In this document: piece by piece, positions 3,501 through 48,472 of the stretch
Layout of the letters: each line of letters starts with the position of its first letter
Position numbering within the stretch: position 1 is the stretch's first letter
Origin: a bacterium
Lineage (GTDB): Bacteria > Zhuqueibacterota > Zhuqueibacteria > Zhuqueibacterales > Geothermadaptataceae
Assembly (NCBI GenBank): GCA_024275575.1
Contig: JAJRYV010000130.1
Coordinates: forward strand, 60,565-124,564
DNA length: 64,000 bases
Direction: 5' to 3'
Notes under the pieces: generated by a model
The model's input: only the letters and a program-made list of their open reading frames with translations
The model's database searches: none
What the model was told of the DNA's origin: nothing
Made by a program: the position numbers and the translations under genes

Positions 3501-4558
3501 GCACGACGACTCGAAAATTCGGCGGCACCGGCCTGGGCTTGTCGATTTCAGCCAAACTCGTTCGCTTGCTCGGTGGAGAAATCTGGCTGGAAAGTCCGGT
3601 TCATAAAGAACCCGGCGCGCAATTCCCCGGCACGATTTTTTATTTTACCAGCCCATTTGGGCTGCAAAAACAACCTGTATTCCATAGGCCGTTGCACGAC
3701 GCTTTGCTCGAGCAGAAAAAAGCGCTCATCATCGATGATAATGAGACAAATTGCCTGATTTTGAAAAAAATGCTCGCCCATTGGGGCATGGATTCGACCA
3801 CGGTATTTGCGGCAAAAGATGCGCTGCGTATGCTCGAAGCAGGCACTCAACCGCATTTTGATATTATTTTACTTGACTATCAAATGCCGGAAATGAACGG
3901 TTATGAATTTATTGAAAACTATCAAAAACTGGCGCAAAAACGTCGCCTTCCTATCATCATGTTGACCTCTTCCGGCATGCGCGAAAGCAGCGAACGCGCC
4001 CGGGAAATGGGTGTCAGCCGCTTTATAACAAAACCGATAAAATCGGATGATTTGAAAGAAGCCGTAAAAAACTTGCTGTGCTATCCTGCAGGGGCTGTCG
4101 CAGGTAAAACGTCGCCTGTCGTGAAACCAAAGCAGGAAGGCGGGGTTATCGGTAAACGGGATGTAAAAATTCTGCTCGTCGAAGATAATAAGGTCAATCA
4201 AAAAGTCGCACAAAAAATTCTCGAGCAACGCGGTTTTGAAACGATCATTGCCGAAAATGGCAAGGAAGCCGTCGAGAAGTTTATCAGCGATTCTTTTGAT
4301 ATCATTTTAATGGATATTCAAATGCCGGTGATGGATGGTTATCAGGCAACATGCGCTATCCGTGAAAGAGAAAAAGAAAAGGATAACCCGATACCTATTA
4401 TTGCTTTAACAGCCAATGCCATGAAAGGTGACGCCGAAAAATGCCTCAGCGCCGGAATGGATGCCTACGCTTCAAAACCGATCAACCGCACAAAACTCAT
4501 CGCACTTATCGAACAAATGCTCAATTTAAACACAAGCGATGCAGCCATTGGCCCTTAG
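509..4558 (+). CDS. Hybrid sensor histidine kinase: signal/TM, periplasmic two-component-regulator propeller repeats plus Y_Y_Y domain, TM, HisKA-HATPase, two receiver domains
   Basis: 1349-aa ORF. It has many 'W.GT..GL' propeller repeats and a Y_Y_Y module ('[16 protein letters not shown]...[12 protein letters not shown]'). A TM segment '[18 protein letters not shown]' follows. The H-box is '[18 protein letters not shown]' and the G-boxes are 'DSGIGIP' and 'GGTGLGLSI'. There are two REC domains ('LIIDDNETN...[11 protein letters not shown]...TKPIK' and '[10 protein letters not shown]...[11 protein letters not shown]...ASKPI'). Confidence 0.9.
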
Positions 4559-4663: not shown

Positions 4664-6040
4664 TTATAAATCGAAATACAATGAATACTCGATGGGGCTG
4701 GGCCAGTTTGAAATATGATTGAATTCATCGTTTTTTATCTTGATCCAGTGGGTGACGAGCGTTTCGCTGAATATGGAATCGCGCAACAGGAAAGCATAAT
4801 CTTTTTCCAGCGCCAGCAAGGCCCGGGTGATGCTGAAGGGCAGATATTTGATTTCGATTGAGGGATCAAAATTATCAGCTTCGTAAGGGCCAAAGCCTTC
4901 TTTGCGTGGATCGATTTTATTGATGACGCCATCGAGCCCGGCCATCATAATGGCGCTTAACGCAATGTAAGGATTTGCCGTTGCATCCGGCGGACGGTAC
5001 TCAAATCGCGTCAATTGCGGGTCTTTGATATAGCGCGGAATGCGGACGCAGGAGGCCCGGTTGGCCTGGCCGAAGTTGATCGCGGTGGGCGCTTCAACGC
5101 CGGGCACTAGCCGTTTGTAGGAATTGGTGGAAGGATTGGTAAATGCGCAAAGCGCGGCCGCGTGTTTCAATACACCGCCGATATAGCAGAGCGCAGTATC
5201 ATTGAGATTGGCATATCCACCCTGCTCAAAAAAGGCATTTCTGCCATTTCCAGCACAGAGATAATGGTGCAGGTGCAGTCCTGAACCTGCTTGCTGGTAA
5301 ACGGGTTTGGGCATAAAGGTTAAAAACAGGCCATGTTCCCGCGCCAGATTGTGCAAAATATATTTGCCCATGCTGATATTGTCTGCTGTTTGCAGCAGCG
5401 GGTTAAAAACCAGTTCGATCTCTTGCTGCCCAAGATTGCCGACTTCATGATGGTGATACTTGACTTCGATCCCGGACTTTTGCAGGATTTTTGTTGCTTC
5501 ATCACGAAAATCATCGTGGCTATCAAAGGGGTTGGCAATATGGTAGCCATTGCCCATGGATTCTTCGCTGGATTCGATGGTGAAAAATGAATTTTGCGCG
5601 TCCGAGCTATATCTGGCATTGTTGAAAATATAAAACTCAAACTCCGGCCCCCACATCGATGATGCAGCGATGCCGTATTGGGGCAGTAGTTTTTCCGTCG
5701 ATTCCGCCATTTTTCGCAAATCGAACTGATAGGGTGTGTTGGCGGCGTCCGTATTGAAAATGCGTGTCAGGAAACTGAGTGTTGGCGCTTTCCGGAATGG
5801 GTCGATCAATGCTGTCGCCAAATCCGGTTTCATGATCATATCGCTGTTTTCAACTTTTTTGAAACCGTAACTTGAGCCGTCGAAACCGACGCCGTCTTGC
5901 AATAAAGTTTTTAGGGTTTTATCGCTGTAAGGCAGGGTCAGATGATGCATGCGGCCGTTTAAATCTGTCACTTTCAGATCGATAAACTCGATCTCCGTCC
6001 CCTCCGGATAATTTTTTATTTCAAATTTTTGTTGTTCCAC
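4664..6040 (-). CDS. glnA: Glutamine synthetase (type I-like)
   Basis: 458 aa with the GS signatures 'GPEFEFYIF', 'GSGLHLHHYL' and 'NPSTNSYKRLVPGVEAP', plus an N-terminal beta-grasp segment 'EFIDLKVTDLNGRMHHLTLP'. Confidence 0.85.
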   Translation of the reverse strand: MEQQKFEIKNYPEGTEIEFIDLKVTDLNGRMHHLTLPYSDKTLKTLLQDGVGFDGSSYGFKKVENSDMIMKPDLATALIDPFRKAPTLSFLTRIFNTDAANTPYQFDLRKMAESTEKLLPQYGIAASSMWGPEFEFYIFNNARYSSDAQNSFFTIESSEESMGNGYHIANPFDSHDDFRDEATKILQKSGIEVKYHHHEVGNLGQQEIELVFNPLLQTADNISMGKYILHNLAREHGLFLTFMPKPVYQQAGSGLHLHHYLCAGNGRNAFFEQGGYANLNDTALCYIGGVLKHAAALCAFTNPSTNSYKRLVPGVEAPTAINFGQANRASCVRIPRYIKDPQLTRFEYRPPDATANPYIALSAIMMAGLDGVINKIDPRKEGFGPYEADNFDPSIEIKYLPFSITRALLALEKDYAFLLRDSIFSETLVTHWIKIKNDEFNHISNWPSPIEYSLYFDL

Positions 6041-6536: not shown

Positions 6537-7520
6537 ATGCCGGAAGTAACAAATTTTGAATCGGTTATCGATTTCAAAAGAGCAGGTGTGGGAACGCTCT
6601 GCGGCCGCGACGACGCTCTTCGGCGCTTTCAGACACAATTCTCGATCGATAACCAGGGTCAGATCAGCATTAACAACGCACGCTTGCGTCGGCCGATGGA
6701 TGCCAAATCCACCCGACGCTTGAAGTTTGCCGGGAAATACCTGATTTCCCCAACGTTTCTTTTCACCAGCCTGGGTGTGATCTTGTTTTTTCCGGATACC
6801 CTGATTCGCAAGGTGATGGCGCCTTTTTCAAACTTGCAGTTATGGGAGAAGGCCGGGAAGCGGCTCTTCGATCTTTTTGGTGCGATACTCGGTTTTATCG
6901 TGCTGTCGATCTTTTTTATCATGATTCCGTTTCTGATCATTTTTGACAGCCGCGGTCCGATTATTTACAAGCAAAAACGCATCGGGTTGAATCACCGGTT
7001 TGGCGACAGGCGGGGGGTAAACCTCGCAGTAAAACACGATCGTCGCAGATGGCAGCGCCGCAGGAAAGATTTATATGGTCGGCCGTTTTGGGTTTTTAAG
7101 TTTCGCACCATGCGCCAGGATGCCGAAAAAACCAGTGGTGCGATGTGGGCCCAGGAAAACGACCCGCGGATTACGCCTTTTGGCCGGGTACTGCGCTTTA
7201 CGCACATCGACGAGATCCCCCAGTTTTTCAACGTGTTATGCGGCGAAATGTCGCTGGTGGGGCCGCGTCCGGAGCGTCCGGAACTGATGCCCGATATCGT
7301 TGAGAAAGTGCCGGATTTTCCCAACCGTTTGCAGGTCAAACCCGGCATGACGGGGCCGGCACAGATCGTTTGCGGCTATGATACGACGATCGAAGCTGTA
7401 AAAGAAAAGTTACATTATGATTTGATATATGTCCGGAAATCAGGGTTGAAGGAAGATATACTTCTGTTGTTCCAGACGTTTTGGGTTATTGTTCGAGGCA
7501 AGGAAGTCCTTGATTCGTAG
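6537..7520 (+). CDS. Polyprenyl-phosphate glycosyl-1-phosphate transferase (bacterial sugar transferase family, WbaP/EpsB-like priming enzyme)
   Basis: TM helix 'LFGAILGFIVLSIFFIMIPFLIIF' followed by 'FKFRTMRQDAE...DPRITPFGRVLRFTHIDEIPQFFNVLCGEMSLVGPRPERPE', the hallmark C-terminal domain of this family. An Arg-rich insert of about 30 aa precedes KFRTM. RBS 'agagga' lies upstream of the ATG. Confidence 0.85.
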   Translation: MPEVTNFESVIDFKRAGVGTLCGRDDALRRFQTQFSIDNQGQISINNARLRRPMDAKSTRRLKFAGKYLISPTFLFTSLGVILFFPDTLIRKVMAPFSNLQLWEKAGKRLFDLFGAILGFIVLSIFFIMIPFLIIFDSRGPIIYKQKRIGLNHRFGDRRGVNLAVKHDRRRWQRRRKDLYGRPFWVFKFRTMRQDAEKTSGAMWAQENDPRITPFGRVLRFTHIDEIPQFFNVLCGEMSLVGPRPERPELMPDIVEKVPDFPNRLQVKPGMTGPAQIVCGYDTTIEAVKEKLHYDLIYVRKSGLKEDILLLFQTFWVIVRGKEVLDS

Positions 7521-7548
7521 AACCACCAGGTATGGAGGTCTTTTAATA

Positions 7549-8277
7549 ATGATTTTAGTGAGATGGGCTAAGTTAGCCGCAGCAGCAGTATTTCTTGTTA
7601 TCACTCATCCTTTGTCTGCGCAAACAAGACCGGAAGGGAATGTTAAGATTATTTCCAATCCGAACGCGTCGATTGTTACGCTGAGTGGTGAGTATACCCT
7701 GAGGGGGCAAACTCCTTATATTGCTGTTCATGCATTAAAGGGGTACTACAAGCTTGAAGCACGAAAACGCGGGTATGAGGATTTCAATTCTTCTTACTTT
7801 TTTAAACCCGATGTGCGTAAAAAGTTAGCCATTCGTTTAACCCGTAAATCAAGACCGCGATCATTTTTTCGTTCGATGTTCATGCCTGGTTGGGGGCAAG
7901 CATATACCGATCAGCGTTGGAAGGGATTGCTCTTTGCCGGCGTCCAACTCGGTGCGGCCGGTTATTTTGTCATCACTCATAAAGAATATCTCGACGCCAA
8001 AGATGCATACAACAAAGCCTTCGACGCCTTTGCTCAATCCGGCGCACAGGATGCCAAAATCTACCAGGATGTGGAGGCCAAATACAAGCTTTTAATCGAT
8101 AAATATGATAACCGGGAAAGAGTGCTGATTTTGAACATGAGTGTTTATTTGTACAATCTTTTCGATACCCTCTTTTTCTATCCGAAATACCATTACCCTA
8201 AATTACGCGCCTCAGTCGAGCTTAACCGGCAAGGTTCCCAGCCTACGCTGGCGTTTGGTGTGCGCGCCAGTTTTTGA
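7549..8277 (+). CDS. Secreted/membrane protein with a PEGA-like beta-sandwich and a DUF5683-like C-terminal membrane segment
   Basis: The track ORF starts at 7489, overlapping the previous gene. The ATG at 7549 has a GGAGG at 7534-7538 and gives a signal peptide 'MILVRWAKLAAAAVFLVITHPLSAQ'. A PEGA-like stretch is 'VKIISNPNASIVTLSGEY...YKLEARKRGYEDF', followed by 'MPGWGQAYTDQRWKGLLFAGVQLGAAGYF'. Confidence 0.5.
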   Translation: MILVRWAKLAAAAVFLVITHPLSAQTRPEGNVKIISNPNASIVTLSGEYTLRGQTPYIAVHALKGYYKLEARKRGYEDFNSSYFFKPDVRKKLAIRLTRKSRPRSFFRSMFMPGWGQAYTDQRWKGLLFAGVQLGAAGYFVITHKEYLDAKDAYNKAFDAFAQSGAQDAKIYQDVEAKYKLLIDKYDNRERVLILNMSVYLYNLFDTLFFYPKYHYPKLRASVELNRQGSQPTLAFGVRASF

Positions 8278-8328
8278 TGATGGTTTTCGTTATTCACTTT
8301 AAAGATATGATATATATTCACGGAGTTC

Positions 8329-10209
8329 ATGCAAATGAAAAAACGGATTGAATGGATTCAATATGTTTTTACCGGCGGTTTATTAATGACGCTATTGCTC
8401 GTTTCCGCCTGTGTAAAAAAACCAACAGGACCCGAAGAACTCGTTAAAGGCGGGGATACTTTTCCCGGCAAACCTTTCGACATTCACATCTCAATTGGTG
8501 ATGGTCTCGTCCGGCTCGACTGGACAGTCAACAACCGCGCAACGATCGATCGCTTCATCATCACACGGCGCAATGTAACGGAAACACAGAGTGTAGAGTT
8601 TACCAGCACGGATACTGTTTTCGTCGATCAGAAACTCGTCAATGGCCAGGAATATATTTACACCATCAAAGCGATTCGCATTATCGATGGTAGTGAATTT
8701 TCCGGACTGCCTTCCGAAAAAATATCGGCGACGCCCAATGTCTATGCGATTTTGTTGGAGAACGGCTCCGATTTTACCTCGCGCCGTTCCGTCAGTATCG
8801 GTGTGACGGCGCCATCGACAACCAGTATCGTGGAATTGAGCAATAGTCCGGATTTTGCGAATTCTTCCTCATTGCAATTTCAAGCGACGGTTCAATGGGC
8901 GCTTTCGCCCGGCGATGGCCGCAAAGGCGTTTGGGCCCGCTTTCAGGATAAAGAAGGTCAGACGACCAATGCTGCGGTTTCCGACAGTATTTTTCTCGAT
9001 ACGCGGGCAACGATTCTCTCCGTTGAAGAAAATACCAATGGCCAGACAAAAGTCGCTGCCGACAGCATTTATTTCTCCATGTACACCGGTGAACCTTTTG
9101 GCCGGCTGGCTTCGATTTCAATCGAAGACGGCCCCCGGGATGTGCAGCTCCACGATCTCGGTACGGGCTATTACGACGCCTGGTACGTCATTCCAAAAGA
9201 TGCGGATGTTTTTCAGGCGAAAATAACCGGATTTTTTACCGACCGCGCCGGCAATAAGGCAACGCCGATTTTTGCTGAATCACGGGTGACGATTTTGCGC
9301 GCCCCGGCGCCTGTGACGCTTTTTAAACCGGTAATCGCCGGTGATGGCCGCACCTCACTCAAACTTTCCTGGAGTTTGACCGAAGATGAACATGATTTTC
9401 AAACCTACGAGATTTATCGTGCGTTGTTGGGAAGCAATGAATTTACCCTGGTTGCCATCATTGCGCTGTCCACCGAAACCTCGTTTACCGATACCAACCT
9501 GCAGCCAAATACAACCTATGTTTATAAAGTCGTCGTGCGTGATAAATCCGGTTTGACCGGTGAAAGCAACGAAGAATCACAGACGACACGGCCCGATGAA
9601 ATTGCCAATCCGGTAATCATGTATGACCCCTTGTTTTCCTCCAGTGGTCAGACTGATATTATCGAACTGAACTGGACACAGAGTGCCGAGGATAATTTCA
9701 ACAGCTATCATGTTTACCGCGATACCGCGCCGAACGTCACGACCAACTCAAAGCTGGTGAGCATCATTTCACTGGTGGATAACACCACATATAGCGACAC
9801 GAATTTCGAAGAAAATCTGACTTATTATTACAGTGTTTTTGTCTACGATGAGCATGGACAGGTTGCTTCGATCAGCAATGAAGTGTCCGTGACGGTGTCC
9901 AATACCGTGCCGGATCCGGTTTATATGGCTCAACCGATCATCGTTGACACGACGGGATTCCAGTTATCATGGTCGCAAAGCCTCGATCCGGATTTTGCCA
10001 ATTACCGCATTTTCCGTTCACGCGGCAGTACGGTCATCATCACTGATGAACCGATAGCAATTCTCAGCGGCGATCGGCTGAAAACAACTTATGAGGACAG
10101 AAGCTTAACCAATGGGGTGACCTACAGTTACCGCGTCTTTGTTTATGATACAAATGGTGATTTTGCAGGAAGCAATACCGTAACAGAGGTAACAGGAGGT
10201 ACGAATTAA
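8329..10209 (+). CDS. Lipoprotein with multiple fibronectin-type-III-like repeats and a central Ig-like module
   Basis: Lipobox 'LLVSAC'. A recurring module appears as 'L(D/S/N)W(T/S)....D.F..Y.I(Y/F)R......Y.D..L..n..Y.Y.V...D..G' ('LDWTVNNRATIDRFIITRR', 'LSWSLTEDEHDFQTYEIYR', 'LNWTQSAEDNFNSYHVYR', 'LSWSQSLDPDFANYRIFR'). The central segment 'GDGRKGVWARFQDKEGQTTNA' is typical of surface Ig-like domains. Confidence 0.7.
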   Translation: MQMKKRIEWIQYVFTGGLLMTLLLVSACVKKPTGPEELVKGGDTFPGKPFDIHISIGDGLVRLDWTVNNRATIDRFIITRRNVTETQSVEFTSTDTVFVDQKLVNGQEYIYTIKAIRIIDGSEFSGLPSEKISATPNVYAILLENGSDFTSRRSVSIGVTAPSTTSIVELSNSPDFANSSSLQFQATVQWALSPGDGRKGVWARFQDKEGQTTNAAVSDSIFLDTRATILSVEENTNGQTKVAADSIYFSMYTGEPFGRLASISIEDGPRDVQLHDLGTGYYDAWYVIPKDADVFQAKITGFFTDRAGNKATPIFAESRVTILRAPAPVTLFKPVIAGDGRTSLKLSWSLTEDEHDFQTYEIYRALLGSNEFTLVAIIALSTETSFTDTNLQPNTTYVYKVVVRDKSGLTGESNEESQTTRPDEIANPVIMYDPLFSSSGQTDIIELNWTQSAEDNFNSYHVYRDTAPNVTTNSKLVSIISLVDNTTYSDTNFEENLTYYYSVFVYDEHGQVASISNEVSVTVSNTVPDPVYMAQPIIVDTTGFQLSWSQSLDPDFANYRIFRSRGSTVIITDEPIAILSGDRLKTTYEDRSLTNGVTYSYRVFVYDTNGDFAGSNTVTEVTGGTN

Positions 10210-10265
10210 CGGTGGATGGTGTATCGAACCTGGATGGACTTCATTTTTTTGCGGGGAAGCGAATC

Positions 10266-11312
10266 ATGTTTAAACGAAAGTTTTTTGGATTTTTACTTTT
10301 AGGGGCGCTGTTACAGTGTTGCTTTTTGCGCCAGGTTTCCGCTCAGGAATATATGCTCGAGCCGAACGATCGGATCTCGATATCTTTTTGGCAACAGCCG
10401 GATTTGAATGCGGAAGTTAAAATTGACACTGACGGTCGCATCGAGATACCGGTAGCCGGGCGCATTACGGCAGCCGGACTCACCGTTTCCCAGCTTGGGA
10501 TCAAGATCGTCGAAAAAGTGAGTATTTACAATCGCAATGTCACCCAGGCGGTGGTCACGGTTCTCGAATACGGCAGTAAAAAGATATTTGTGACCGGAGC
10601 GGTACAGATGCCCGGGCCTTATACATTTGAATATATGCCTAATGTCTGGGAAGCTATTCTGCAAGCTGGTGGTCCGCTGGAAACCGCAAAGCTGGACCAG
10701 GTAACAATCGTCCGCGGCGGTAATACCAATGGCCAGCTCATCTCCGTCGATCTCAAAGCCTATTTCAATACATCGGATTTATCACGACTGCCCGAGCTGC
10801 GCCCTGGTGACAATATCAATGTTCCGGGTGCTGTCGGCGGTGTGGCCGGCGCTGGCGGTGCTGCGGGTGCCGGCGCTGGTGGCGGTGGCGGCAGCCTTTT
10901 TACAAAAAGCAGTGTTGTCTATATTTACGGTCAGGTCGTTGCACCCGGGGTCTACGAATTTGAAGAAGGCGCCGATGTGCTCGAAGCAATCGTGCGTGCC
11001 GGCGGGCCATTGCTCACCGTTCGTGCCAACGGCAACGGGCCAACTGTAGAACCCGACCTGGAGCATGTCAAATTGATCACCAGAGGCAGGGAAGGTACCG
11101 TTGTTTATGAAATCAATCTTGATAATTATTCCAATGAAGGCGTGCCGCACCCTCTGCCGATTAAAGCCGGAGACACTATCTATGTCCCGTTTAAGGAATC
11201 CTACAAGAAATTTACGATATCAACAGCCCTGGCCGCAGCGATTAATGGTTCGGTCTCCATTCTCATTACTTATTTTCTCTTGGAGAAAATCCTGAAAACG
11301 AACAATAACTAA
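10266..11312 (+). CDS. Outer-membrane polysaccharide export protein (OPX, Wza-like: Poly_export plus SLBB domains)
   Basis: The ATG at 10266 gives a signal peptide 'MFKRKFFGFLLLGALLQCCFLRQVSAQ'. The Poly_export motif is 'LEPNDRISISFWQQPDLNAEVKIDTDGRIEIPVAGRITAAGLTVSQL'. Two SLBB-like repeats are present ('IFVTGAVQMPGPYTF', 'VYIYGQVVAPGVYEF'), plus a C-terminal hydrophobic helix. Confidence 0.8.
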   Translation: MFKRKFFGFLLLGALLQCCFLRQVSAQEYMLEPNDRISISFWQQPDLNAEVKIDTDGRIEIPVAGRITAAGLTVSQLGIKIVEKVSIYNRNVTQAVVTVLEYGSKKIFVTGAVQMPGPYTFEYMPNVWEAILQAGGPLETAKLDQVTIVRGGNTNGQLISVDLKAYFNTSDLSRLPELRPGDNINVPGAVGGVAGAGGAAGAGAGGGGGSLFTKSSVVYIYGQVVAPGVYEFEEGADVLEAIVRAGGPLLTVRANGNGPTVEPDLEHVKLITRGREGTVVYEINLDNYSNEGVPHPLPIKAGDTIYVPFKESYKKFTISTALAAAINGSVSILITYFLLEKILKTNNN

Positions 11313-11378
11313 TCTTTTGAGAGCAGTTATCATTAACGGCAATTTTAACAATTGAATCTAAACAGCACAGGATAGATC

Positions 11379-12896
11379 ATGCAACAAGGCCCATCATTTG
11401 ATATTCGAACCATCTTTCAAATTGTACAGCGGAGAAAATGGTTTCTGATAGTTCCGATAGTTCTGGCAACGATTGTCTGTGTCGTGATCATCAAGATTAC
11501 CGTACCGGTTTATCACTCAACGGCAACCATTAAAATGGACAGGTTTCTCACGCTCACCGGCCGAATGAACCAGCTTGTGCCAGGGGTTACCGCACAAAAC
11601 CGGGTGCGCATGCGGGATAATAAAGAAGCGATCTTTAAGCAATTATCGAATCAGCAAACAATAGGCAAAATCATCGATCGCGTGGGTATGAAACCAAAGC
11701 AAGGTCAAATCGAGAAGGCCAATGAAATAGTCAAATCCAATCCGGCCCTGAGCAAGGAAGAAGCCTTGCGCTCGATCATGATTTCCCAGTTGACACAGAA
11801 GCTTACGCTGGAATTCGCTCAGCGCAGCGAATATTTTATTCTTGGAAGTAAATCCAGCCAACCTAAAAATGCCTATCTGATCACCAAGACGCTGGCTGAT
11901 TTATTTATCGAAGAAAACTTGATGACCGAGCTATCCCGACTTAAAGGCACCGCCGAATTCGCTACCGTACAGATGGAACACTATCGCGTGCAACTGCAAG
12001 ATGCGGAAGACGCCCTGCGCGCCTATCGTCGCTCGATGGCGCAGACTTCGACACAAAATTTGTCCGTCAACTCAGATAATCTGCCCCATGTGAACAGCCT
12101 CATTCAATCTTATGAAGCGGAAAAACTAAAACGCATCGATGAACTCAACAATGTAGAAACCCGTCTCGGCGATTTAAATTCTGATATCGTTATGTTTCAA
12201 TCCAACGAAGCGACACAATTAAAGGCGCAGCTCATCGAAAAAATTTCAAAGCAGGCAGAGCTGCTCATCAGTTTTCCATGGAATAACGGCGACGTTTTGC
12301 GCATCAGCAAGGAAATAGCCAACTTGAAAGACCGGCTGCGTAATGAAATCCGCCGCACCGGCCCACGCGATATGCAGAGCAAATACGGCCGCTCCGTCAT
12401 CTTATTAGCGATTAAACGCGAAACGATTGAAACTGAAATTTCCCTGCTCAACAAGCAGGTTAACACGCTGAACCGGTTGATCGATTTGTTCAACCGGGCT
12501 CGAACAACTATTCCGGTGCAAGAGTTGACGTTGAATAATTTGCAGGCGAAAGTTGAGAAAAACCGTCAACTTTATCAGACGTTTGTTGACCAGGCCAACA
12601 GCGCCCGCATTCGGGAAGCGTTGCAGCTGACGGAAATGAAAGTGCGCTACCGTGTTATCGATCCAGCACAAATTCCGGTTGAACCGATCAATACTGATTA
12701 TATGCAAATCATTCTCATCGCGACTTTAGCCGGTCTTGGTCTGGGTGTCGGACTCGTCTATTTGCTGGAACTGCTGGACAATTCTTATAAAGGTATCGAA
12801 GAAATCGAAACAGCTCTCGGTATCTCGGTACTGGGAATTGTCCCTAAAATGAACCTCGGCCCCGGCGCGGGTAAAAAGAAATCTCTGCCATTTTAA
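11379..12896 (+). CDS. Polysaccharide co-polymerase / chain-length determinant (Wzz/GumC-like PCP) without a kinase domain
   Basis: N-terminal Wzz motif with TM ('IFQIVQRRKWFLIVPIVLATIVCVVII'), a long coiled-coil periplasmic region, and a second TM near the C-terminus ('IILIATLAGLGLGVGLVYLLELL'). Confidence 0.8.
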   Translation: MQQGPSFDIRTIFQIVQRRKWFLIVPIVLATIVCVVIIKITVPVYHSTATIKMDRFLTLTGRMNQLVPGVTAQNRVRMRDNKEAIFKQLSNQQTIGKIIDRVGMKPKQGQIEKANEIVKSNPALSKEEALRSIMISQLTQKLTLEFAQRSEYFILGSKSSQPKNAYLITKTLADLFIEENLMTELSRLKGTAEFATVQMEHYRVQLQDAEDALRAYRRSMAQTSTQNLSVNSDNLPHVNSLIQSYEAEKLKRIDELNNVETRLGDLNSDIVMFQSNEATQLKAQLIEKISKQAELLISFPWNNGDVLRISKEIANLKDRLRNEIRRTGPRDMQSKYGRSVILLAIKRETIETEISLLNKQVNTLNRLIDLFNRARTTIPVQELTLNNLQAKVEKNRQLYQTFVDQANSARIREALQLTEMKVRYRVIDPAQIPVEPINTDYMQIILIATLAGLGLGVGLVYLLELLDNSYKGIEEIETALGISVLGIVPKMNLGPGAGKKKSLPF

Positions 12897-12976
12897 TAAC
12901 GGCAGGTATAAAATTAATGAAAAAGTGGCATTACAGGTTTTAACGTAATCCATTTTGATAGTGGCAAACAGTTAGC

Positions 12977-14134
12977 TTGAGAGGTAATGTTTTGAGTGAA
13001 GTGAATCGCTTAGTGTATTCGGTCGAGGTTACCGAAGATAAAATCCACATCATTCACCTCAAAGATGTCTTCGATCCCTCGACCGTGGAAGAGTTTGAAC
13101 ACGTGCTGGAATACTTGCTCAACAACGATCACTACAAAGTTGTGGTCAATCTGGCGCGAGTCGAATTTGTGAGTTCTGCCGGCTGGGGAACCTGCACTAG
13201 CGTGCTGAACCAGTGCCGCAACCATGGCGGCGATATCGTTCTCGTCGGCATGCAACCGGAGGTTTTTGACGTATTCATGCTGCTGGAGCTGGATACGTTT
13301 ATCGAAGCATTTCCCTGTGTTGATAACGGGTTGAAACATTTCCGTGCGAAATCTTTTGTTGTCAAACGCGCTAATGAAATCGTTGAAACCGAAAAGGTGC
13401 GTGGGAAAAAAGTCAAAAATGGCGCGGTGACAAGAGAACGGTTTCAACTGCCTGCCGATGATGAATTTGATGATGATGTTGATGAACCTTCACCCGATCA
13501 GGGGCAGGATGCCGGGAAAGCAAATCCCGAGACGAATTCGGAAATCTCGGGAAATAAAACAGAGCGGATTGATGATGCCCCCAAAAATGAACAAAGGCAA
13601 AATCTGACGCCGGAAGCGCCGACGGGTTTTGTCGGAGGTGGAATACAGCCACCCGATTCACAACAATTGCAAAATCCGGGTGCAAGGACGAGTGGAATCG
13701 ATTCAGGTTTGACAAATACACCACCAGCGGAAAACCCTGAAACCCCGATGCAGAAAAAAACACAACCGGGTGATCAGGCGAAAAAGTTTTTTGATACTGA
13801 TTTTTATTTCGGCCGACCGCTGGCGCCATCGAGCGGTCAGTTCGGAAACAGGCCCAAAAGCACCGATACACCGTTGCAAAACAAAACACAACATCGTTCA
13901 AATCAGTTTGGCACGCCGACGATTAACACGAGAGGCGATCAGCTGCTGGAACGTATCATTAATATTATTATCTCGAACCCGACTTACGGCCCGAGTACGA
14001 TCCGCCTGGCGCTCATCCGCAACGGTTATGCTGACCATTCTTTAACACGGTCGATGATTTTTAAAAAGTTGAGTGACGTCAATTTGAGCACACGCAATAA
14101 ACGTATCGAATTTTCACAGGCACACCGGCGTTGA
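12977..14134 (+). CDS. STAS-domain (anti-sigma-factor-antagonist-like) protein with a long disordered linker and a small C-terminal domain
   Basis: The N-terminal ~125 aa form a STAS fold: 'VVVNLARVEFVSSAGWGTCTSVLNQCRNHGGDIVLVGMQPEVFDVFMLLELDTFIEAF'. Residues ~130-320 are P/Q/N/T/D-rich low complexity. The last ~65 aa look globular. The start is uncertain (TTG 12977, or TTG 12992 after 'gagagg'). Confidence 0.75.
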   Translation: MRGNVLSEVNRLVYSVEVTEDKIHIIHLKDVFDPSTVEEFEHVLEYLLNNDHYKVVVNLARVEFVSSAGWGTCTSVLNQCRNHGGDIVLVGMQPEVFDVFMLLELDTFIEAFPCVDNGLKHFRAKSFVVKRANEIVETEKVRGKKVKNGAVTRERFQLPADDEFDDDVDEPSPDQGQDAGKANPETNSEISGNKTERIDDAPKNEQRQNLTPEAPTGFVGGGIQPPDSQQLQNPGARTSGIDSGLTNTPPAENPETPMQKKTQPGDQAKKFFDTDFYFGRPLAPSSGQFGNRPKSTDTPLQNKTQHRSNQFGTPTINTRGDQLLERIINIIISNPTYGPSTIRLALIRNGYADHSLTRSMIFKKLSDVNLSTRNKRIEFSQAHRR

Positions 14135-14214
14135 CCGGATGATGGTATCCTGATTTTAGCACGCAGGGAAAACAGTTTTTCAAGTAAACAGCAAGGTATG
14201 ACAACAGGTTAAAA

Positions 14215-15348
14215 ATGGGTAAAAACATGGGTGATTTTATATTCAACGATATTATTCGCGCCAATCAAAATAGCGAATACTTTCTCAAAACAGCAAACAG
14301 CGAATATGAGAACCGTATCGTATCATCGTTTTTTCGCAATGGTGAACTGATCGATACGCAGTTTAAGGATTATGATGAAAACGTCAAAGGCGAACGGCTC
14401 TTGCAGGAAACGCGCACATTTCACGATGAAAAACGGGCGGAGGTGCAGTCGTTGTTGAGCCTTTCCGAGAAAATGCGTGATACCGATCAGGTGGAAACCA
14501 AAAACCTGCTGGGTTTGGCATTTTTGCGTCGCGGCATGTATGAAGAAGCAGTGCAGGAGTTTGAAGAAGCGGCTGTTCTCGACAAGGATAATGCATTGAT
14601 TTATAATAACCTGGGGCGTTCATACCTGGGCGTCGATAAAATCACTGAAGCGACTAAAGTATTGCGTATGGCAATTAAATTACGTTCGCAATTTGCCGAC
14701 GTGCACAATAATCTTGGCCTCGCTTATTTGAAAAAAAATCAGTGCAAAAAAGCTGTCGATTGTTTTGACAAGGCTGTGGAAATTAATCAATATTACGCTG
14801 AGGCATTTTATAATCTTGGGCTGGCATATGTTTTAAATGCCTACAAACGGGAAGATTTCAACCTGTCAGTCAATTGTTATGTCAAGGTGATGGAATGCAT
14901 GGAGAAAGCCATCAAAATCAATCCGGCCTATCGCAACGAACATTTTGATCGGGCGGAAGCGATGTTGCGCAATAAAGAATTTGAGCAGGCTTATTCTGAA
15001 TTTGACAAAGGCAGACGCTATGTTGCACCGACCACCGATTTCCCGTTTATTCTCGATTTTTACCTGCGGGTTTTGCACGCTGAAAATAAACTGAAAAGCG
15101 GCATGGTTTTGCGCCACATCAAACAGCTTGAAAAGAATTTAAAAAAACACCCGAGTTATGCGGATTTATACAATCATCTCGGAGTGGCTTATGTTATTTT
15201 AAGCAAAATCATCAACAATAAAGCTTCACAACAATTCCACAAGGCGCTGGAAATCAACCCTGATTTTATTCGTGCCAAACGAAATCAGCGGCTTGCTGAA
15301 TATGATCAGAAGGGCATCCAATTGCTCTTCGACGCTATTTTGAAATAA
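14215..15348 (+). CDS. Tetratricopeptide-repeat protein
   Basis: Successive TPR units, e.g. 'LGLAFLRRGMYEEAVQEFEEAAVLDKDNALIYNNLGRSYL', 'HNNLGLAYLKKNQCKKAVDCFDKAVEINQYYAEAFYNLGLAY', 'YNHLGVAY...FHKALEINPDF'. Confidence 0.75.
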   Translation: MGKNMGDFIFNDIIRANQNSEYFLKTANSEYENRIVSSFFRNGELIDTQFKDYDENVKGERLLQETRTFHDEKRAEVQSLLSLSEKMRDTDQVETKNLLGLAFLRRGMYEEAVQEFEEAAVLDKDNALIYNNLGRSYLGVDKITEATKVLRMAIKLRSQFADVHNNLGLAYLKKNQCKKAVDCFDKAVEINQYYAEAFYNLGLAYVLNAYKREDFNLSVNCYVKVMECMEKAIKINPAYRNEHFDRAEAMLRNKEFEQAYSEFDKGRRYVAPTTDFPFILDFYLRVLHAENKLKSGMVLRHIKQLEKNLKKHPSYADLYNHLGVAYVILSKIINNKASQQFHKALEINPDFIRAKRNQRLAEYDQKGIQLLFDAILK

Positions 15349-15433
15349 TCTGTGTGGTTTTTGAAGGGATTCATAAACCCACAGGCTTTGCCGGTTGAAA
15401 CCGGCCTGAATAAACTTGCGTAGGGAAAATTTT

Positions 15434-16147
15434 ATGGAATTTGGTAGCACTATTCTCGATTATTTCAGGGACGAATCTGCTGAAGCAACAGAATTTCGGC
15501 GGTTGCACTCGAAAATGCTCAACCTGCACGGCGGCCAGGAATTCAAAAATGTTTTGATCACCAGCGCGACGATTAGCGAAGGAAAAAGCACCGCAGCGGC
15601 ATTGCTCGCTTGCACTGTCGCCCGCTATCGCGATACCAAAACAATCATCGTCGATTGCGATTTGCGCCGCCCGCGGGTGCACACGCTTTTCGGACTGCCG
15701 AAAGATGACGGTGTCGCCGATGTGCTCAGCGGTAAACGCAGCCTTGATGCCTGTTTCAAACCCAGTCCTATCGATAATCTGCAGGTGCTCACATCCGGCG
15801 GAGTGATCGATAATCCGACGGAATTGTTTAATTCACCGCGCATGAAAGACCTGTTTTCAGAAATTAAATTTTATTTTGACGCTGTCATCGTCGATACGCC
15901 ACCGATCATTCCGGTGACCGATTCACTGATTTTGAGCACGGAAATGGATGGCGCAATCATGGTTTTGAAAGCCGGCGAGACTAAAAAACAAATCGTCAAT
16001 CGCGCTGTGGAGTTAATGCGAAATTCGGGCTTGAATATATTAGGAGTAATCGTTAATAATATGAAAGGCGTTTTGCCCTATTATTACGATCACAGATATT
16101 ACGGTTATGACTACACCCCTGGTTCGACTGAAGAGAAGTTTTTCTGA
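15434..16147 (+). CDS. BY-kinase (CpsD/CapB-type tyrosine autokinase ATPase domain), stand-alone
   Basis: Walker A 'SATISEGKST', Walker A' 'IIVDCDLRRP', Walker B 'VIVDTPP', and a C-terminal tyrosine cluster 'LPYYYDHRYYGYDY'. The ATG at 15434 is preferred over the TTG at 15416. Confidence 0.85.
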   Translation: MEFGSTILDYFRDESAEATEFRRLHSKMLNLHGGQEFKNVLITSATISEGKSTAAALLACTVARYRDTKTIIVDCDLRRPRVHTLFGLPKDDGVADVLSGKRSLDACFKPSPIDNLQVLTSGGVIDNPTELFNSPRMKDLFSEIKFYFDAVIVDTPPIIPVTDSLILSTEMDGAIMVLKAGETKKQIVNRAVELMRNSGLNILGVIVNNMKGVLPYYYDHRYYGYDYTPGSTEEKFF

Positions 16148-16200
16148 TCGCAATTGTGTGACGTGGAGAGAATAGATCATTTTTAACGGGAGATTGTCGA

Positions 16201-17163
16201 ATGGCAATTTATTTAGTCACCGGAGGTGCCGGTTTTATTGGTTCAAATATTACACACAAAATTTTACAAAACGGGGATAGTGTCCGTGTGCTCGATAATC
16301 TGAGCACCGGCAGGGTAGAAAATATCGAAGATGCAAAAGGTGATATCGAATTTATCGAAGGCGATATTTGCAATGCCGAAACCGTCAATAAAGCTGCCAC
16401 TGGCGTAGATTATATTCTGCATCAGGCTGCTTTGCCCTCGGTTCAGCGCTCGGTAGAGAATCCCGCTGCCTCGAACTTTGTCAATGTTTCCGGCACGATG
16501 AATGTGCTGATTGCTGCACGGGATCAGAAAGTTAAGCGTTTCGTTATGGCCTCGAGCTCCTCGGTTTATGGCAATACCGCCACGCTCCCCAAAATCGAAC
16601 ATATGGCGCCATTGCCGATTTCGCCCTACGCGGTTTCGAAACTCGCTGCAGAAAAATATGCTATGAGTTTTCACTCTATTTATGGGGTGCCGACGGTCGC
16701 CTTCCGTTACTTTAATGTTTTCGGGCCGCGGCAGGACCCGAAATCACATTACGCAGCAGTCATTCCGCTTTTCATCAACGCGCTGCTAAAACGGGAGAGC
16801 CCCACCGTGCATGGCGATGGTGAACAGTCACGCGATTTTACCTTCATCGAAAATGTTGTTCATGGCAATTTGCTGGCCTGCGAAAGCGATACCGCTTCCG
16901 GTAATGCGATGAATCTCGCATGTGGTGACCGTATTTCCCTGAACGGCCTGCTGCAAAAGCTGGAAATTATTCTCGGCGTTAAAGCTAACGCCCAACATAT
17001 CGAAAGCCGCACCGGCGATGTCAAACATTCACAAGCAGACATCGGTCTGGCGAGAAAGCTGCTTCATTACGAGCCGCTGGTCACATTCGACGAAGGATTG
17101 GCAAAAACGGTCGCATACTACAGGAGTTTGTTGCAGCCTTCTGTCATTTCAGCGGTTGCATAA
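16201..17163 (+). CDS. NAD-dependent nucleotide-sugar epimerase (extended SDR, UDP-GlcNAc/UDP-Glc 4-epimerase-like)
   Basis: Rossmann motif 'VTGGAGFIGSN', catalytic 'YAVSKLAAE', and 'RYFNVFGPRQDP'. Confidence 0.85.
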   Translation: MAIYLVTGGAGFIGSNITHKILQNGDSVRVLDNLSTGRVENIEDAKGDIEFIEGDICNAETVNKAATGVDYILHQAALPSVQRSVENPAASNFVNVSGTMNVLIAARDQKVKRFVMASSSSVYGNTATLPKIEHMAPLPISPYAVSKLAAEKYAMSFHSIYGVPTVAFRYFNVFGPRQDPKSHYAAVIPLFINALLKRESPTVHGDGEQSRDFTFIENVVHGNLLACESDTASGNAMNLACGDRISLNGLLQKLEIILGVKANAQHIESRTGDVKHSQADIGLARKLLHYEPLVTFDEGLAKTVAYYRSLLQPSVISAVA

Positions 17164-17193: not shown

Positions 17194-17223
17194 GCCACAG
17201 GCTGAAGCCTGTGGCTGCTTTTT
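17194..17223 (+). terminator. Rho-independent terminator after the epimerase gene
   Basis: Stem gccacaggc (17194-17202) / gcctgtggc (17207-17215) with loop tgaa, followed by tgcttttt. A second perfect hairpin, gccggctgaaatttcagccggc, follows at 17241-17262. Confidence 0.55.
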
Positions 17224-17405: not shown

Positions 17406-18305
17406 ATGAGAGTTCGCAACGCAATAACGGTGGATGTTGAAGACTGGTTTCATGTCTCACTTTTCCGTCATCACATCCGACATTCTGATTGGGAAAAAAT
17501 GGAAAGCACGGTTGTTGAAAATACTGTGCGCATCATTAATTTATTTTCCCGCTATGATGTAAAAGCAACATTTTTCGTCCTCGGCTGGGTTGCCGAACGC
17601 TACCCGGAGCTGGTTATCGCGATGCAGGAAAAAGGCCATGAAGTCGCGAGCCATGGTTATGGCCATCAAATGGTTTTTGAGCAGACGCCGGATCAGTTTC
17701 AGGATGATGTGGGGCGCTCAATCGACCTCCTTGAAGGCATCACCGGCGAAAAAGTGCATGGCTACCGGGCGCCGAGTTATACCATCACGCGCGATACACT
17801 TTGGGCGCTGGAAAAATTGATCGAGCTGGGAATCGACTACGATTCCAGTATTTTCCCCGTCCGGCATGATGTTTACGGTGTCGCCGATGCGCCGCGTTTT
17901 CCTTTTAAAATCGAAATCACTGCCAAAGGCAGCATCGTCGAGTTTCCCATTTCGACGACGAAAATTCTCGGCAAAAATGTACCCATCGCCGGGGGGGGCT
18001 ATCTACGGCTCTGGCCGTACTGGTTTTTCAAACAGGGGATTCGCAAAGTCAACAGTGCCGGGGAACCGACGATCATCTATTTTCATCCCTGGGAAATCGA
18101 TCCGCTGATTCCACGCATCGATGTGGGCAATATGAAGCATCTTCGCCATTACGGCAACCTCGCTCTCATGGAAGAACGCATCATTTCTCTCCTGAAAAAT
18201 TTTCGTTTCACAACTGTTTGGCAGGTTTTGCAGGAAAGGAGAGAATTCCAGCAATGGCCGCAAACCAAACCCGAGTGGAATTCATACGCAAAAATGTTGC
18301 AATGA
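17406..18305 (+). CDS. Polysaccharide deacetylase (NodB fold) of the type found in PEP-CTERM/exosortase EPS loci (DUF3473-containing)
   Basis: N-terminus 'NAITVDVEDWFHV', 'KATFFVLGWVAERYPELV', 'GHEVASHGYGH', 'YRAPSY'. The C-terminal extension 'GGGYLRLWPYWF...IYFHPWEID' is typical of this subfamily (from memory of TIGR03006-type proteins). Confidence 0.8.
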   Translation: MRVRNAITVDVEDWFHVSLFRHHIRHSDWEKMESTVVENTVRIINLFSRYDVKATFFVLGWVAERYPELVIAMQEKGHEVASHGYGHQMVFEQTPDQFQDDVGRSIDLLEGITGEKVHGYRAPSYTITRDTLWALEKLIELGIDYDSSIFPVRHDVYGVADAPRFPFKIEITAKGSIVEFPISTTKILGKNVPIAGGGYLRLWPYWFFKQGIRKVNSAGEPTIIYFHPWEIDPLIPRIDVGNMKHLRHYGNLALMEERIISLLKNFRFTTVWQVLQERREFQQWPQTKPEWNSYAKMLQ

Positions 18306-18350
18306 GCCTATTACCTCAAAAATTATCACGTATTCACAAAAATTATTTCC

Positions 18351-19376
18351 ATGAAAATTGAACAGGCGAGCGTTTCGCAGAGCGCTGCGGCAGAATTTAT
18401 CCGCTCCACGACTGATGGGAAATTATACCATCTACCGAAAATTCAAACGCTTATCCGTAATACATTTGGCCACGAGACGATCTATTTGCAAGCGCGCGAT
18501 GCCGGTGAAGTTTGTGGTGTTTTACCGCTGGTTCATATGAAAAATCCGCTTTTCGGAAATTTCATCATCTCCGTGCCTTTTTTTAATTACGGTGGTATCT
18601 GCGCACAAAATGAGACAATCGCCGCATCCCTGCTCGAGCATGCTATCGCCGTAACAAAAAAACGTGAAGCCGGTTATCTCGAGCTGCGTCACATCGGTCG
18701 ACGCTTTGCGGATTTGCCGGGGAAAAGCCATAAAGTGGCGATGATTCTTGATTTGCCACAAACTTCCGAAGCGCTTTTTACCAGTTTTAAATCAAAGCTG
18801 CGCAGCCAAATCCGCAAACCCGAAAAAGAAGGCCTGACCGTGCGCATCGGCAAAATGGAGCTGCTCGCCGATTATTATACCGTTTTTAGTGTGAATATGC
18901 GCGACCTGGGAACGCCGGTTTATCCGTTGAAGTTATTCGTCAACATGCTGAAGTTTTTCCCGGAAGATAGCTGGATCATCACAGTTTACAAACAGGCTGT
19001 TCCGATAGCGGCGGGGTTCGTCGTCGGCTTTGGTGATACGATGGAAATCCCCTGGGCATCTTCCCTGCGTCAGTACAACCGTTTGGCCGGAAACATGCTC
19101 ATGTACTGGCATGCCCTGAAGCTGGCGATCGAACAAGGTTTTGACAAATTCGATTTCGGCCGTAGCACGCCGGACGAAGGAACTTATAAATTCAAAGCGC
19201 AATGGGGCGCACAACCGCTGCAACTGAACTGGGAATACTGGCTCGCAAATGGCGGCGAGTTGCCGGATTTGAGCCCGAAAAATGCTAAATATCAGGCTGC
19301 GATTAAAATTTGGCAAAAACTGCCGCTGCCGCTGACGAAAATTATTGGCCCGGCGATTGTAAAAAATATACCGTAA
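18351..19376 (+). CDS. FemAB-like / GNAT-fold acyl- or aminoacyl-transferase (the family associated with PEP-CTERM EPS loci)
   Basis: 341 aa. 'LRSQIRKPEKEGLTVRIG' and 'YNRLAGNMLMYWHALKLAIEQGFDKFDFGRS...GTYKFKAQWGAQP' match the FemAB/Acetyltransf_6-type duplicated GNAT fold. It lies directly after the DUF3473 deacetylase, as in those loci. Confidence 0.7.
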   Translation: MKIEQASVSQSAAAEFIRSTTDGKLYHLPKIQTLIRNTFGHETIYLQARDAGEVCGVLPLVHMKNPLFGNFIISVPFFNYGGICAQNETIAASLLEHAIAVTKKREAGYLELRHIGRRFADLPGKSHKVAMILDLPQTSEALFTSFKSKLRSQIRKPEKEGLTVRIGKMELLADYYTVFSVNMRDLGTPVYPLKLFVNMLKFFPEDSWIITVYKQAVPIAAGFVVGFGDTMEIPWASSLRQYNRLAGNMLMYWHALKLAIEQGFDKFDFGRSTPDEGTYKFKAQWGAQPLQLNWEYWLANGGELPDLSPKNAKYQAAIKIWQKLPLPLTKIIGPAIVKNIP

Positions 19377-24138: not shown

Positions 24139-24369
24139 ATGTTACCTGTGAGTTTTAACTAAATTTCTTTGCTGGATATCACGACAAACATGCGCAGAAA
24201 TTTCGCACTGAATGTACTTTTTAACTAAGGCAAACAAGCGCTGCGGAATTGTCTGTCCCGTTGTGGGCGAGCAGAATTATAAATTTGGGCAGCCTGAAGA
24301 ATAAATATTTCCATAGCTCAATAAGGAATCCGCAGGGGTTCCTTTTATATATCGATTTTTGAGGTAGAA

Positions 24370-47662: not shown

Positions 47663-47713
47663 TATCTCCCTTGTCTGGAAAAACATGAAATATCATAATT
47701 AATAAAAGGAACG

Positions 47714-48031: not shown

Positions 48032-48065
48032 ATTTTATTTATAATTGAGAATTGGTACCTTTGTA

Positions 48066-48443: not shown

Positions 48444-48472
48444 GACAGATAGCTATTTGACAGGAGACAGGA

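Follow-up and report, generated by a model that had tools for sequence, protein, structure and literature searches.

The DNA stretch analysed here, referred to as the window, comprises 64,000 nucleotides of the forward strand of contig JAJRYV010000130.1 (positions 60,565–124,564; assembly GCA_024275575.1) from an uncultured bacterium of the Zhuqueibacterota. It contains a cassette of exopolysaccharide (EPS) genes, in which the plus-strand gene at 12977–14134 encodes a 385-residue cytoplasmic protein composed of a STAS domain, a disordered linker and a folded C-terminal domain (CTD). This STAS-linker-CTD gene and the following gene for a tetratricopeptide repeat (TPR) protein separate the gene of the polysaccharide co-polymerase (PCP) from that of the bacterial tyrosine kinase (BY-kinase). 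The order PCP, STAS-linker-CTD, TPR, BY-kinase is present in more than 25 independent loci from metagenome-assembled genomes (MAGs) of the KSB1/Calditrichota type.

The PCP (11379–12896, plus strand) matches the Pfam GNVR and Wzz families. It has a GNVR region, two transmembrane segments (residues ~22–45 and 441–466) and, according to a hydropathy scan, a 39-residue cytosolic C-terminal tail containing '...IEEIETALGISVLGIVPKM...'. Its best NCBIfam match is the XrtA chain-length determinant TIGR03007, with 168 bits, which is below the cut-off of 279. The TPR protein (14215–15348, plus strand) has 377 residues, is recognised by Pfam TPR families and is cytoplasmic. The stand-alone, cytoplasmic BY-kinase (15416–16147, plus strand; 243 residues) scores 158.6 bits with TIGR01007 against a cut-off of 108. 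It contains the Walker A (ATISEGKS), A' (IIVDCDLR) and B (VIVDTPP) motifs, and its tail carries seven tyrosines with the cluster YYYDHRYYGYDY. The hydropathy scan found no transmembrane segment in the TPR protein, and there is none in the STAS-linker-CTD protein or the BY-kinase either.

Anatomy of the STAS-linker-CTD protein

The open reading frame (ORF) at 12977–14134 is intact on the plus strand and yields 385 residues when counted from the TTG at 12977. Translation probably starts at the TTG at 12992, giving a protein of 380 residues. The Shine–Dalgarno-like sequence GAGAGG is located 7 nt 5' of this codon, the public database copy of the protein (P0001) begins there, and the equivalent residue is the first one in all homologues. 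Residue numbers given here refer to the 385-residue version. The initial annotation had read from the sequence a STAS domain with a phospho-serine context, a disordered linker of ~190 residues and a small C-terminal domain, and this anatomy was borne out by Pfam searches and AlphaFold2 (AF2) predictions. In the model, the protein is confirmed to have three parts: a SpoIIAA-type STAS domain, a 184-residue disordered linker and a folded four-helix CTD.

The STAS domain (13034–13324, plus strand) matches PF01740 with 44.9 bits over residues 20–116 (cut-off 22.6), and its fold extends over approximately residues 8–128. A profile of the STAS domains of the family matched SpoIIAA structures in the Protein Data Bank (PDB) with an E-value of 2.4e-10. 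The AF2 model of the domain, with a predicted local distance difference test score (pLDDT) of 70–83 in the full protein, resembles SpoIIAA and RsbV structures (Foldseek E-value 1.5e-6, TM-score 0.74–0.79), and the fold matches also include SLC26 transporters and MlaB. The NCBIfam model of anti-sigma factor antagonists, TIGR00377, gives 52.5 bits against a cut-off of 53.45 for this multi-domain protein. No sigma factor or anti-sigma factor gene is located near the STAS-linker-CTD gene. Comparison with the close relative L013 showed 56 synonymous and five non-synonymous codon differences within the STAS domain, and the domain is therefore under strong purifying selection.

The motif 'EFVSSAGWG' spans residues 63–71 of the STAS domain. 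HMMER alignments pair 'VEFVSSAGWG' with 'LSFMDSSGLG' of SpoIIAA, and therefore S67 (codon 13175–13177, plus strand) is the candidate phospho-acceptor position. Its counterpart is the phospho-acceptor S58 of SpoIIAA, the residue mutated to alanine in PDB structure 1TID. The serine and the SSAGWG motif are almost invariant across the family. Such a near-invariant serine motif is the signature of RsbW-type phosphorylation in known STAS proteins, and phosphorylation of S67 itself is predicted.

The linker (13361–13912, plus strand; residues 129–312) is disordered, with pLDDT values below 50 and no secondary structure in the AF2 model of the full protein. It is acidic (isoelectric point (pI) 5.0), and proline, glutamine, asparagine, threonine, serine and glycine make up 49% of its residues. 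Linkers of the family range from 34 to ~870 residues in length and are acidic in nearly all members, with net charges from −5 in the window protein down to −177. Most members share one conserved acidic-aromatic motif, 'FETQDIRDPWILEEIDTLPEEYEM' or 'NPFDIAEIDDPWLG'. The clade of the window protein does not have the 'DPW' element and contains two conserved islands in its place. The first island, 'RFQLPADDEF' (13439–13468, plus strand; residues 155–164), is conserved within the clade and may correspond to the '...TLPEEYEM' half of the motif shared across the family. The second, 'KKFFDTDFYFGRPL' (13781–13822, plus strand; residues 269–282), is identical or almost so in the window protein, L001/L013, L012 and P0004. 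An acidic linker of variable length with one kept motif fits a tether that bears a binding peptide. The short motifs are of the kind that TPR domains typically read, and we infer a link to the TPR protein from this.

A low-complexity stretch of this kind could arise as a frame artefact, as the initial annotation had considered, if a misassembly or a frameshift fused a short STAS gene with a short ORF unrelated to it, or if the gene were decaying. The composition of the stretch would be compatible with such an origin, and the opposite strand also has long ORFs across the region 12977–14134. However, all five insertions or deletions relative to L013 are multiples of three, and the substitutions in the linker are concentrated at third codon positions (106, versus 66 and 55 at the other two), as expected of a coding sequence. 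The same three parts recur in every examined locus and across 37 representative clusters of proteins. Thirteen homologues from a set of 5.8 billion proteins have the same layout with linkers very unlike in length, and despite these differences the STAS domain and the conserved CTD share one frame in every case. The homologue layout, the insertions and deletions in threes and the third-position excess rule out an artefact or a pseudogene for practical purposes.

The CTD (13928–14131, plus strand; residues 318–385) is basic, with a pI of 11.2. When its 68 residues were modelled alone, AF2 predicted four helices with a pLDDT of 94.7, and residues 320–385 have a pLDDT of ~88 within the full protein. 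The invariant positions are I327, P335, G338-P339-S340, I342, R343, L346, T357-R358-S359, L365, L370, T372-R373 and R376, and invariant arginine, threonine and serine residues are located at the N-termini of helices 3 and 4. Direct searches did not assign the domain: the window CTD reached no Pfam gathering cut-off (HTH_21: E-value 0.14, 12.9 bits versus 28.1), its profile found a single chance-level epimerase match among PDB chain sequences (E-value 0.12), and its model had no significant Foldseek match in the PDB (E-values 1.9–10). The best of these insignificant structural matches are all DNA-binding helix-turn-helix (HTH) domains, namely those of Pax paired, FapR, AhrC and Fur, with TM-scores of 0.55–0.65.

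The CTD profile retrieved 74 of 1.84 billion representative proteins. Half of these (37) have an N-terminal STAS domain and total lengths of 212–1053 residues, and many others are C-terminal fragments. The profile also matched P0028, P0046, P0069, P0070 and P0080 with E-values from 1e-9 to 1e-3, and the matched regions pass the Pfam cut-offs of HTH_21, HTH_32 or HTH_Tnp_Tc3_2 (82 bits for P0028 and 52 bits for P0069; P0070 and P0080 also pass). One matched protein contains five HTH_21 repeats (82 bits), and others combine HTH_Tnp_1 or HTH_28 with HTH_21 or HTH_32 in tandem (P0031, P0032, P0052, P0055 and P0072). Proteins with HATPase_c_2, HAMP, SpoIIE and HTH domains, in some cases followed by TPR repeats, are fusions of an RsbW-type kinase with a PP2C-type phosphatase, and hhalign aligned the CTD family of the window protein to one of them, P0076, with a probability of 94.9%. 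Reached through these intermediates, the CTD is classified as a divergent transposase-type HTH domain of the HTH_21/HTH_32 kind. The small globular domain of the initial annotation is thus confidently folded, but it is not an orphan fold. The domain may bind DNA, or it may have been co-opted for docking to other proteins.

Domains similar to the CTD are also found in other protein contexts. GspC-like proteins of type II secretion systems (T2SSC and PDZ domains) carry an N-terminal HTH_32/HTH_21-like domain, and a 2293-residue GT2/DUF2341/BNR protein has N-terminal HTH domains. In P0070, P0080 and P0078 of the representative library, the HTH_21/HTH_32-like domain is attached to envelope or secretion machinery, where DNA binding is unexpected. 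P0060, P0075 and P0076 (L011, 8003–11242) consist of an RsbW-like kinase, HAMP, PP2C and an HTH-like domain, and two of the three contain TPR repeats. In L011, the fusion gene is followed by a gene for a 213-residue STAS protein (11318–11959), the ORF of which ends in a CTD-like sequence. Both members of this partner-switching pair therefore carry an HTH-like domain.

Conservation of the four-gene core and its surroundings

The initial annotation described the STAS gene as inserted between the PCP and its kinase, on the premise that the PCP and kinase genes of a split system are usually neighbours. The premise agrees with a review of BY-kinases (PMC9800525), and the separation of the two genes by the STAS and TPR genes was found in the window and in all related loci. 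The description of the STAS gene as lying between PCP and kinase is correct, but the word insertion is misleading. Because the gene order recurs in close and distant loci, the STAS and TPR genes are an ancestral part of a four-gene core of the cassette family and not a local addition. The possibility that no relative shares the order, which had also been raised, does not hold.

Seven independent metagenomic or NCBI contigs found by protein identity each contain the cassette, with genes for Bac_transf, PEGA/DUF5683, FN3, the Wza-like exporter, PCP, STAS, TPR and BY-kinase, and then for an epimerase, a DUF3473 deacetylase, a FemAB-like protein and a GT2 protein. When one genome of each GTDB species was scanned with an alignment of STAS domains alone, 24 loci were found, mostly labelled as candidate division KSB1, Calditrichaeota or 'Candidatus Zhuqueibacter', and about 20 of them contain the complete cassette (tblastn map). 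All matches of the scan are in MAGs, and none is in a cultured organism. The core is retained around a distant STAS member of 754 residues (L010). Three members with coiled-coil or other linkers (P0030, P0057 and P0065) are encoded directly after a PCP gene and before the gene of a TPR protein of ~372–377 residues. The BY-kinase gene is next in the loci of distant members wherever the contig reaches it; the contig of L037 stops at the STAS gene. L036–L038 keep the core order within cassettes that are otherwise differently ordered. The calls of the PCP and STAS genes overlap by 13 nt in L037 and by 4 nt in L038, which suggests translational coupling.

Wherever a locus extends far enough, the TPR gene comes next after the STAS gene. 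Its products are 372–377 residues long and strongly conserved, and they are annotated merely as 'tetratricopeptide repeat protein' within a large family. Judged by gene neighbourhood, the TPR protein is the obligate neighbour and putative partner of the STAS-linker-CTD protein. The TPR family is wider than the STAS/TPR module, because relatives of 382 residues with 28% identity (L039, 9001–10149; L040, 2039–3187) do not adjoin STAS genes. These relatives are encoded between genes for a GGDEF diguanylate cyclase and a GAF-HD-GYP protein, a context that suggests an association of the wider family with signalling proteins. The same context fits a cytoplasmic signalling adaptor. Family searches with the window TPR protein gave generic TPR matches only and no relation to Rap/RRNPP families. 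A specific kinship with the TPR part of the RsbW-PP2C-HTH-TPR proteins was considered and rejected, as the similarity is generic (22% identity).

The first strong plus-strand terminator-like hairpin past the start of the cassette is located after the epimerase gene at 17194–17215; it was identified by consensus match only and consists of a 9-bp stem with seven GC pairs followed by a T run. Because no such hairpin precedes it, 6537–17163 may be a single transcription unit. The gene of the PEGA and DUF5683 membrane protein (7489–8277, plus strand) is second in the cassette in all relatives. Counted from its TTG start, it overlaps the 3' end of the sugar-transferase gene, which extends to 7520. 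The window cassette closes at 23098–26955 (plus strand) with an APH-type kinase-like gene and a gene for an 861-residue protein with a cytochrome c554-like region and TPR repeats. This pair recurs in L008, and the TPR/cytochrome gene is also present in L003. The cassette is located directly 3' of ftsQ-ftsA-ftsZ in most relatives (L001, L003, L005, L008 and L009). In the window it is preceded by a minus-strand 458-residue ORF (4664–6040) and the gene of a 1349-residue hybrid histidine kinase (509–4558; Reg_prop/Y_Y_Y), and therefore the upstream junction has been rearranged in the window genome.

A k-mer search with one mismatch allowed upstream of the cassette in 19 loci, which is a weak test, found no conserved operator, but only AT-rich words and one non-palindromic motif, AACACTGTCTCAnnnTGAnGCG. 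The motif is located upstream of the sugar-transferase gene in eight loci (L003, L005, L008, L009, L014, L017, L024 and L025), 258–333 nt before the first cassette gene, whereas neither the window nor its two closest relatives have it. An alignment of the latter three contains one conserved block ~180–240 nt upstream, with no obvious palindrome.

Proposed function and alternative explanations

The position of the STAS-linker-CTD gene makes a regulatory role in polymer assembly or kinase control the most plausible reading. We propose, with a probability of roughly 0.45, that the protein acts in the cytoplasm as an adaptor with a phospho-switch and, jointly with its TPR partner, gates the assembly that depends on PCP and BY-kinase. 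The two proteins would form a two-gene regulatory module in the core of an F-type (split) PCP/BY-kinase assembly system. The STAS domain, bearing the SpoIIAA-type S67, would in its unphosphorylated form engage a component of the PCP/BY-kinase/TPR complex and thereby license polymer assembly and export. Phosphorylation of S67 by an RsbW-type serine kinase encoded elsewhere would switch the system off, and a PP2C phosphatase would reverse this, in a manner comparable to SypA and All4160. The acidic disordered linker would be a flexible tether with conserved short linear motifs, and the basic HTH-like CTD would offer a further docking site. The linker motifs, the CTD or both are most likely recognised by the TPR protein. 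The natural point of control would be where the PCP tail and the kinase meet non-covalently, a contact needed for kinase activation in split systems. Within this mechanism, we infer the phosphorylation, which kinase performs it, all contacts between proteins and the sign of the effect.

Several observations support the adaptor mechanism. The PCP/STAS/TPR/BY-kinase order is kept in every locus with enough flanking sequence. The STAS-CTD/TPR pair is also present outside EPS loci (L030, and L031, in which the pair is on a short contig). Furthermore, an RsbW-HAMP-PP2C protein encoded beside a short STAS-HTH protein contains both an HTH-like domain and TPR repeats (P0075/L011). Also in favour are the gene overlaps in L037 and L038, the aligned serine in a STAS domain under purifying selection, the lack of transmembrane segments in the STAS, TPR and BY-kinase proteins, a PCP tail typical of the activators of split kinases, the acidic linker of variable length with its kept motif, and the precedents SypA and All4160.

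The initial annotation named two RsbW-like kinases as possible partners. They do exist in the window as REC-HATPase_c_2 proteins recognised by Pfam (56211–57131 and 57311–58210, plus strand), but they are encoded in a Che-like cluster 42 kb away that has its own STAS gene. The cluster (45776–58210, plus strand) is complete and contains genes for an MCP-like protein, the STAS protein, a REC protein, a CheA-CheW-REC hybrid, CheW, PAS-MCP, CheY, CheB and CheR, and ends with the two kinases, which are paralogous. Its small STAS protein (47714–48028, plus strand; 105 residues) has a Pfam STAS score of 49 bits and the motif 'TISSSGIG'. It is encoded together with a CheY-like REC protein (48045–48443, plus strand) between the MCP-like gene and CheA. 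Homologues of the kinases are found solely in MAGs labelled Calditrichota, KSB1 or Bacteroidota. The cluster resembles a chemosensory pathway whose output is partner switching, and its small STAS protein is a more parsimonious substrate of the two kinases than the STAS protein of the EPS cassette. Cross-phosphorylation of S67 by these kinases is possible by analogy with Anabaena, in which a single STAS domain is the in vitro substrate of two kinases (bioRxiv 10.64898/2026.04.08.717354). SpoIIE had no match among the scanned ORFs of the window.

Other results weigh against the adaptor mechanism. All RsbW-like genes of the window belong to the distant cluster with its own STAS gene, and no gene for an RsbW-type kinase or a PP2C phosphatase is present in or beside the cassette in any locus. 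In L030, the STAS/TPR pair, including the CTD, is flanked by ABC transporter and amidohydrolase genes, with neither a PCP nor a BY-kinase gene within 8 kb, and therefore the module is not strictly tied to the PCP and BY-kinase. A mirror-tree analysis with a partial Mantel test (16 taxa) gave the highest raw correlation for the STAS domain and the BY-kinase (r 0.92; partial r 0.54). However, it singled out no partner and cannot discriminate among the candidates, because the partial correlations of the epimerase (0.52) and the PEGA protein (0.49) are as high as that of the kinase. Finally, the kinship of the CTD to DNA-binding-type HTH domains and its strong basicity are at least as compatible with a transcription factor as with a docking domain.

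A STAS-controlled DNA-binding regulator is the main rival, although an unlikely one. The basic HTH domain would bind DNA, for example the promoter of the EPS operon, and the STAS domain would be its phospho-regulated input; the acidic linker might auto-inhibit the HTH by DNA mimicry, and the TPR protein would be a co-regulator binding the HTH or the linker motif. The relatives of the CTD that pass HTH_21, HTH_32 or HTH_Tnp_Tc3_2 cut-offs (P0028, P0069, P0070 and P0080), the many tandem HTH_Tnp_1/HTH_28 and HTH_21-like proteins, which look like pure DNA binders, the pI of ~11, the invariant residues at the N-termini of helices 3 and 4, and the occurrence of the L030 pair away from EPS genes are all compatible with such a role. 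So are the top Foldseek matches, but their E-values of at least 1.9 are insignificant, and the window CTD itself reaches just 12.9 bits with HTH_21. Related domains on GspC-like secretion proteins, on the 2293-residue GT2/BNR protein and on membrane-type RsbW-HAMP-PP2C proteins are in places where DNA binding is not expected. Acidic linkers of up to ~870 residues, the strict placement between PCP and BY-kinase and the overlapping genes would also be unusual for a plain repressor or activator. The lack of an operator-like or palindromic motif upstream of the cassette across the 19 loci points in the same direction, but the search is too weak to count against DNA binding.

It is less probable still that the protein is a constitutive structural scaffold with no phospho-switch, in which the STAS domain serves as a protein- or nucleotide-binding module and the linker as a spacer setting distance or stoichiometry. 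The cassettes, all devoid of kinase and phosphatase genes, would agree with this, the gene order and overlaps suggest co-assembly, and STAS modules that interact without being phosphorylated exist in SLC26 transporters and MlaB, which are among the fold matches. However, the near-invariance of the phospho-acceptor serine and of SSAGWG speaks against a mere scaffold, and the 25-fold variation in linker length argues against a ruler.

The adaptor and DNA-binding readings can be combined. We speculate, and give it a slim chance, that the protein is a tethered transcription factor through which the export machine reports its state: docking on the PCP/BY-kinase complex would involve the STAS domain and the TPR protein, and the linker would let the HTH domain reach DNA or keep it from doing so. 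The docking might, with the same low odds, depend on the phosphorylation of S67, on the oligomeric or phospho-tyrosine state of the kinase, or on both. If so, the status of polysaccharide assembly would feed back directly on gene expression, and a single partner-switching module would connect serine phosphorylation and tyrosine-kinase-controlled assembly with transcription.

How cellular signalling connects to BY-kinase-dependent polysaccharide assembly is not settled. The fixed position of the STAS and TPR genes between the halves of a split BY-kinase names the PCP tail, the kinase and the TPR protein as candidate partners of the adaptor, and a whole group of uncultured bacteria shares this arrangement. 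It points to a possible added layer of control over slime production in bacteria of the KSB1/Calditrichota type and overturns nothing.

Comparison with known systems

The window protein shares with SpoIIAA and RsbV the fold, the position of the phospho-serine and the Pfam STAS model. It differs from them in being a multi-domain protein and in having neither an RsbW/SpoIIAB-type kinase nor a sigma factor encoded next to it. Profile searches link its CTD to the HTH_21/HTH_32 domains of IS3-family transposases; the window protein lacks a transposase catalytic domain, and its CTD is below the Pfam cut-off. TPR proteins of the Rap/RRNPP type bind HTH partners, as RapF does with ComA, and the combination of TPR, HTH and a peptide motif recalls them, as a lead only.

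The EPS locus of the window appears to be related to the XrtA/PEP-CTERM EPS clusters. For its PCP, exporter, kinase and sugar transferase, the best or nearly best matches are families of the XrtA locus (TIGR03007, TIGR03027, TIGR03018 and TIGR03013), all below their own cut-offs. A deacetylase and a FemAB-like gene, both of XrtA/PEP-CTERM-associated families, are located at 17406–19376 (plus strand), and their products exceed the equivalog cut-offs of TIGR03006 (374 bits) and TIGR03019 (364 bits). The locus differs from XrtA loci in that no exosortase family matched the ORFs scanned across the 64-kb window; an exosortase gene could be located elsewhere in the genome. The chain-length determinant and kinase genes are adjacent in canonical XrtA loci, and no STAS gene is known to belong to the set.

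As in the F-type split BY-kinases CapA/CapB and CpsC/CpsD, a membrane activator with a cytosolic tail is combined with a separate kinase containing Walker A, A' and B motifs and a tyrosine cluster. F-type genes flank each other (PMC9800525), whereas here two genes are always in between, and the host of the window is diderm with a Wza-type exporter. The same review lists seven orphan catalytic domains and no F-type kinases for Calditrichota (PMC9800525, Table 1). A strict flanking-gene rule would score kinases such as that of the window as orphan catalytic domains, and some of the orphan BY-kinases of Calditrichota may have their cognate activator two genes upstream.

STAS proteins were not known to the initial annotation as components of EPS loci, but SypA and STAS-glycosyltransferase fusions such as All4160 and XssP provide precedents. 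All4160, HenR and Alr3423 of Anabaena PCC 7120 and XssP of Synechocystis are such fusions. In All4160, the polysaccharide glycosyltransferase is inhibited when the STAS domain is phosphorylated, and the kinase and phosphatase acting on proteins of this type are encoded elsewhere in the genome (bioRxiv 10.64898/2026.04.08.717354; PMC13555669). As would apply to the window protein, a phosphorylatable STAS domain acts there on polysaccharide machinery and not on a sigma factor. The difference is that the STAS domain of All4160-type proteins is fused to the enzyme it controls, whereas that of the window protein is fused through a linker to an HTH-like domain, and its presumed targets are separate proteins.

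SypA is encoded by the first gene of the syp locus of Vibrio fischeri. Its unphosphorylated form is required for syp polysaccharide biofilms, and it is inactivated when SypE phosphorylates S56 (PMC4517449). The targets of STAS regulators such as SypA have been unknown for over a decade, and that of SypA is presumed to be a partner protein and not a sigma factor (PMC4517449). Both SypA and the window protein are STAS proteins with a conserved phospho-acceptor serine encoded within Wzx/Wzy-type polysaccharide loci. SypE is a REC-containing RsbW-like kinase, and REC-RsbW-like kinases are also encoded in the window, although the cassette itself has no SypE-like gene. SypA is a single STAS domain of ~100 residues, to which the window protein adds the 184-residue linker and the HTH-like CTD. 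SypA is first in its locus, whereas proteins of the window type are always encoded between PCP and BY-kinase and always have a TPR partner. Searches of the accessible literature found no description of the STAS/TPR module or of the STAS-linker-HTH_21-like architecture, and no paper combining STAS, BY-kinase and exopolysaccharide. The STAS-linker-CTD protein, which is conserved in uncultured hosts, is a real and previously undescribed variant of the STAS-type polysaccharide regulators represented by SypA and All4160, for which we propose the adaptor mechanism.

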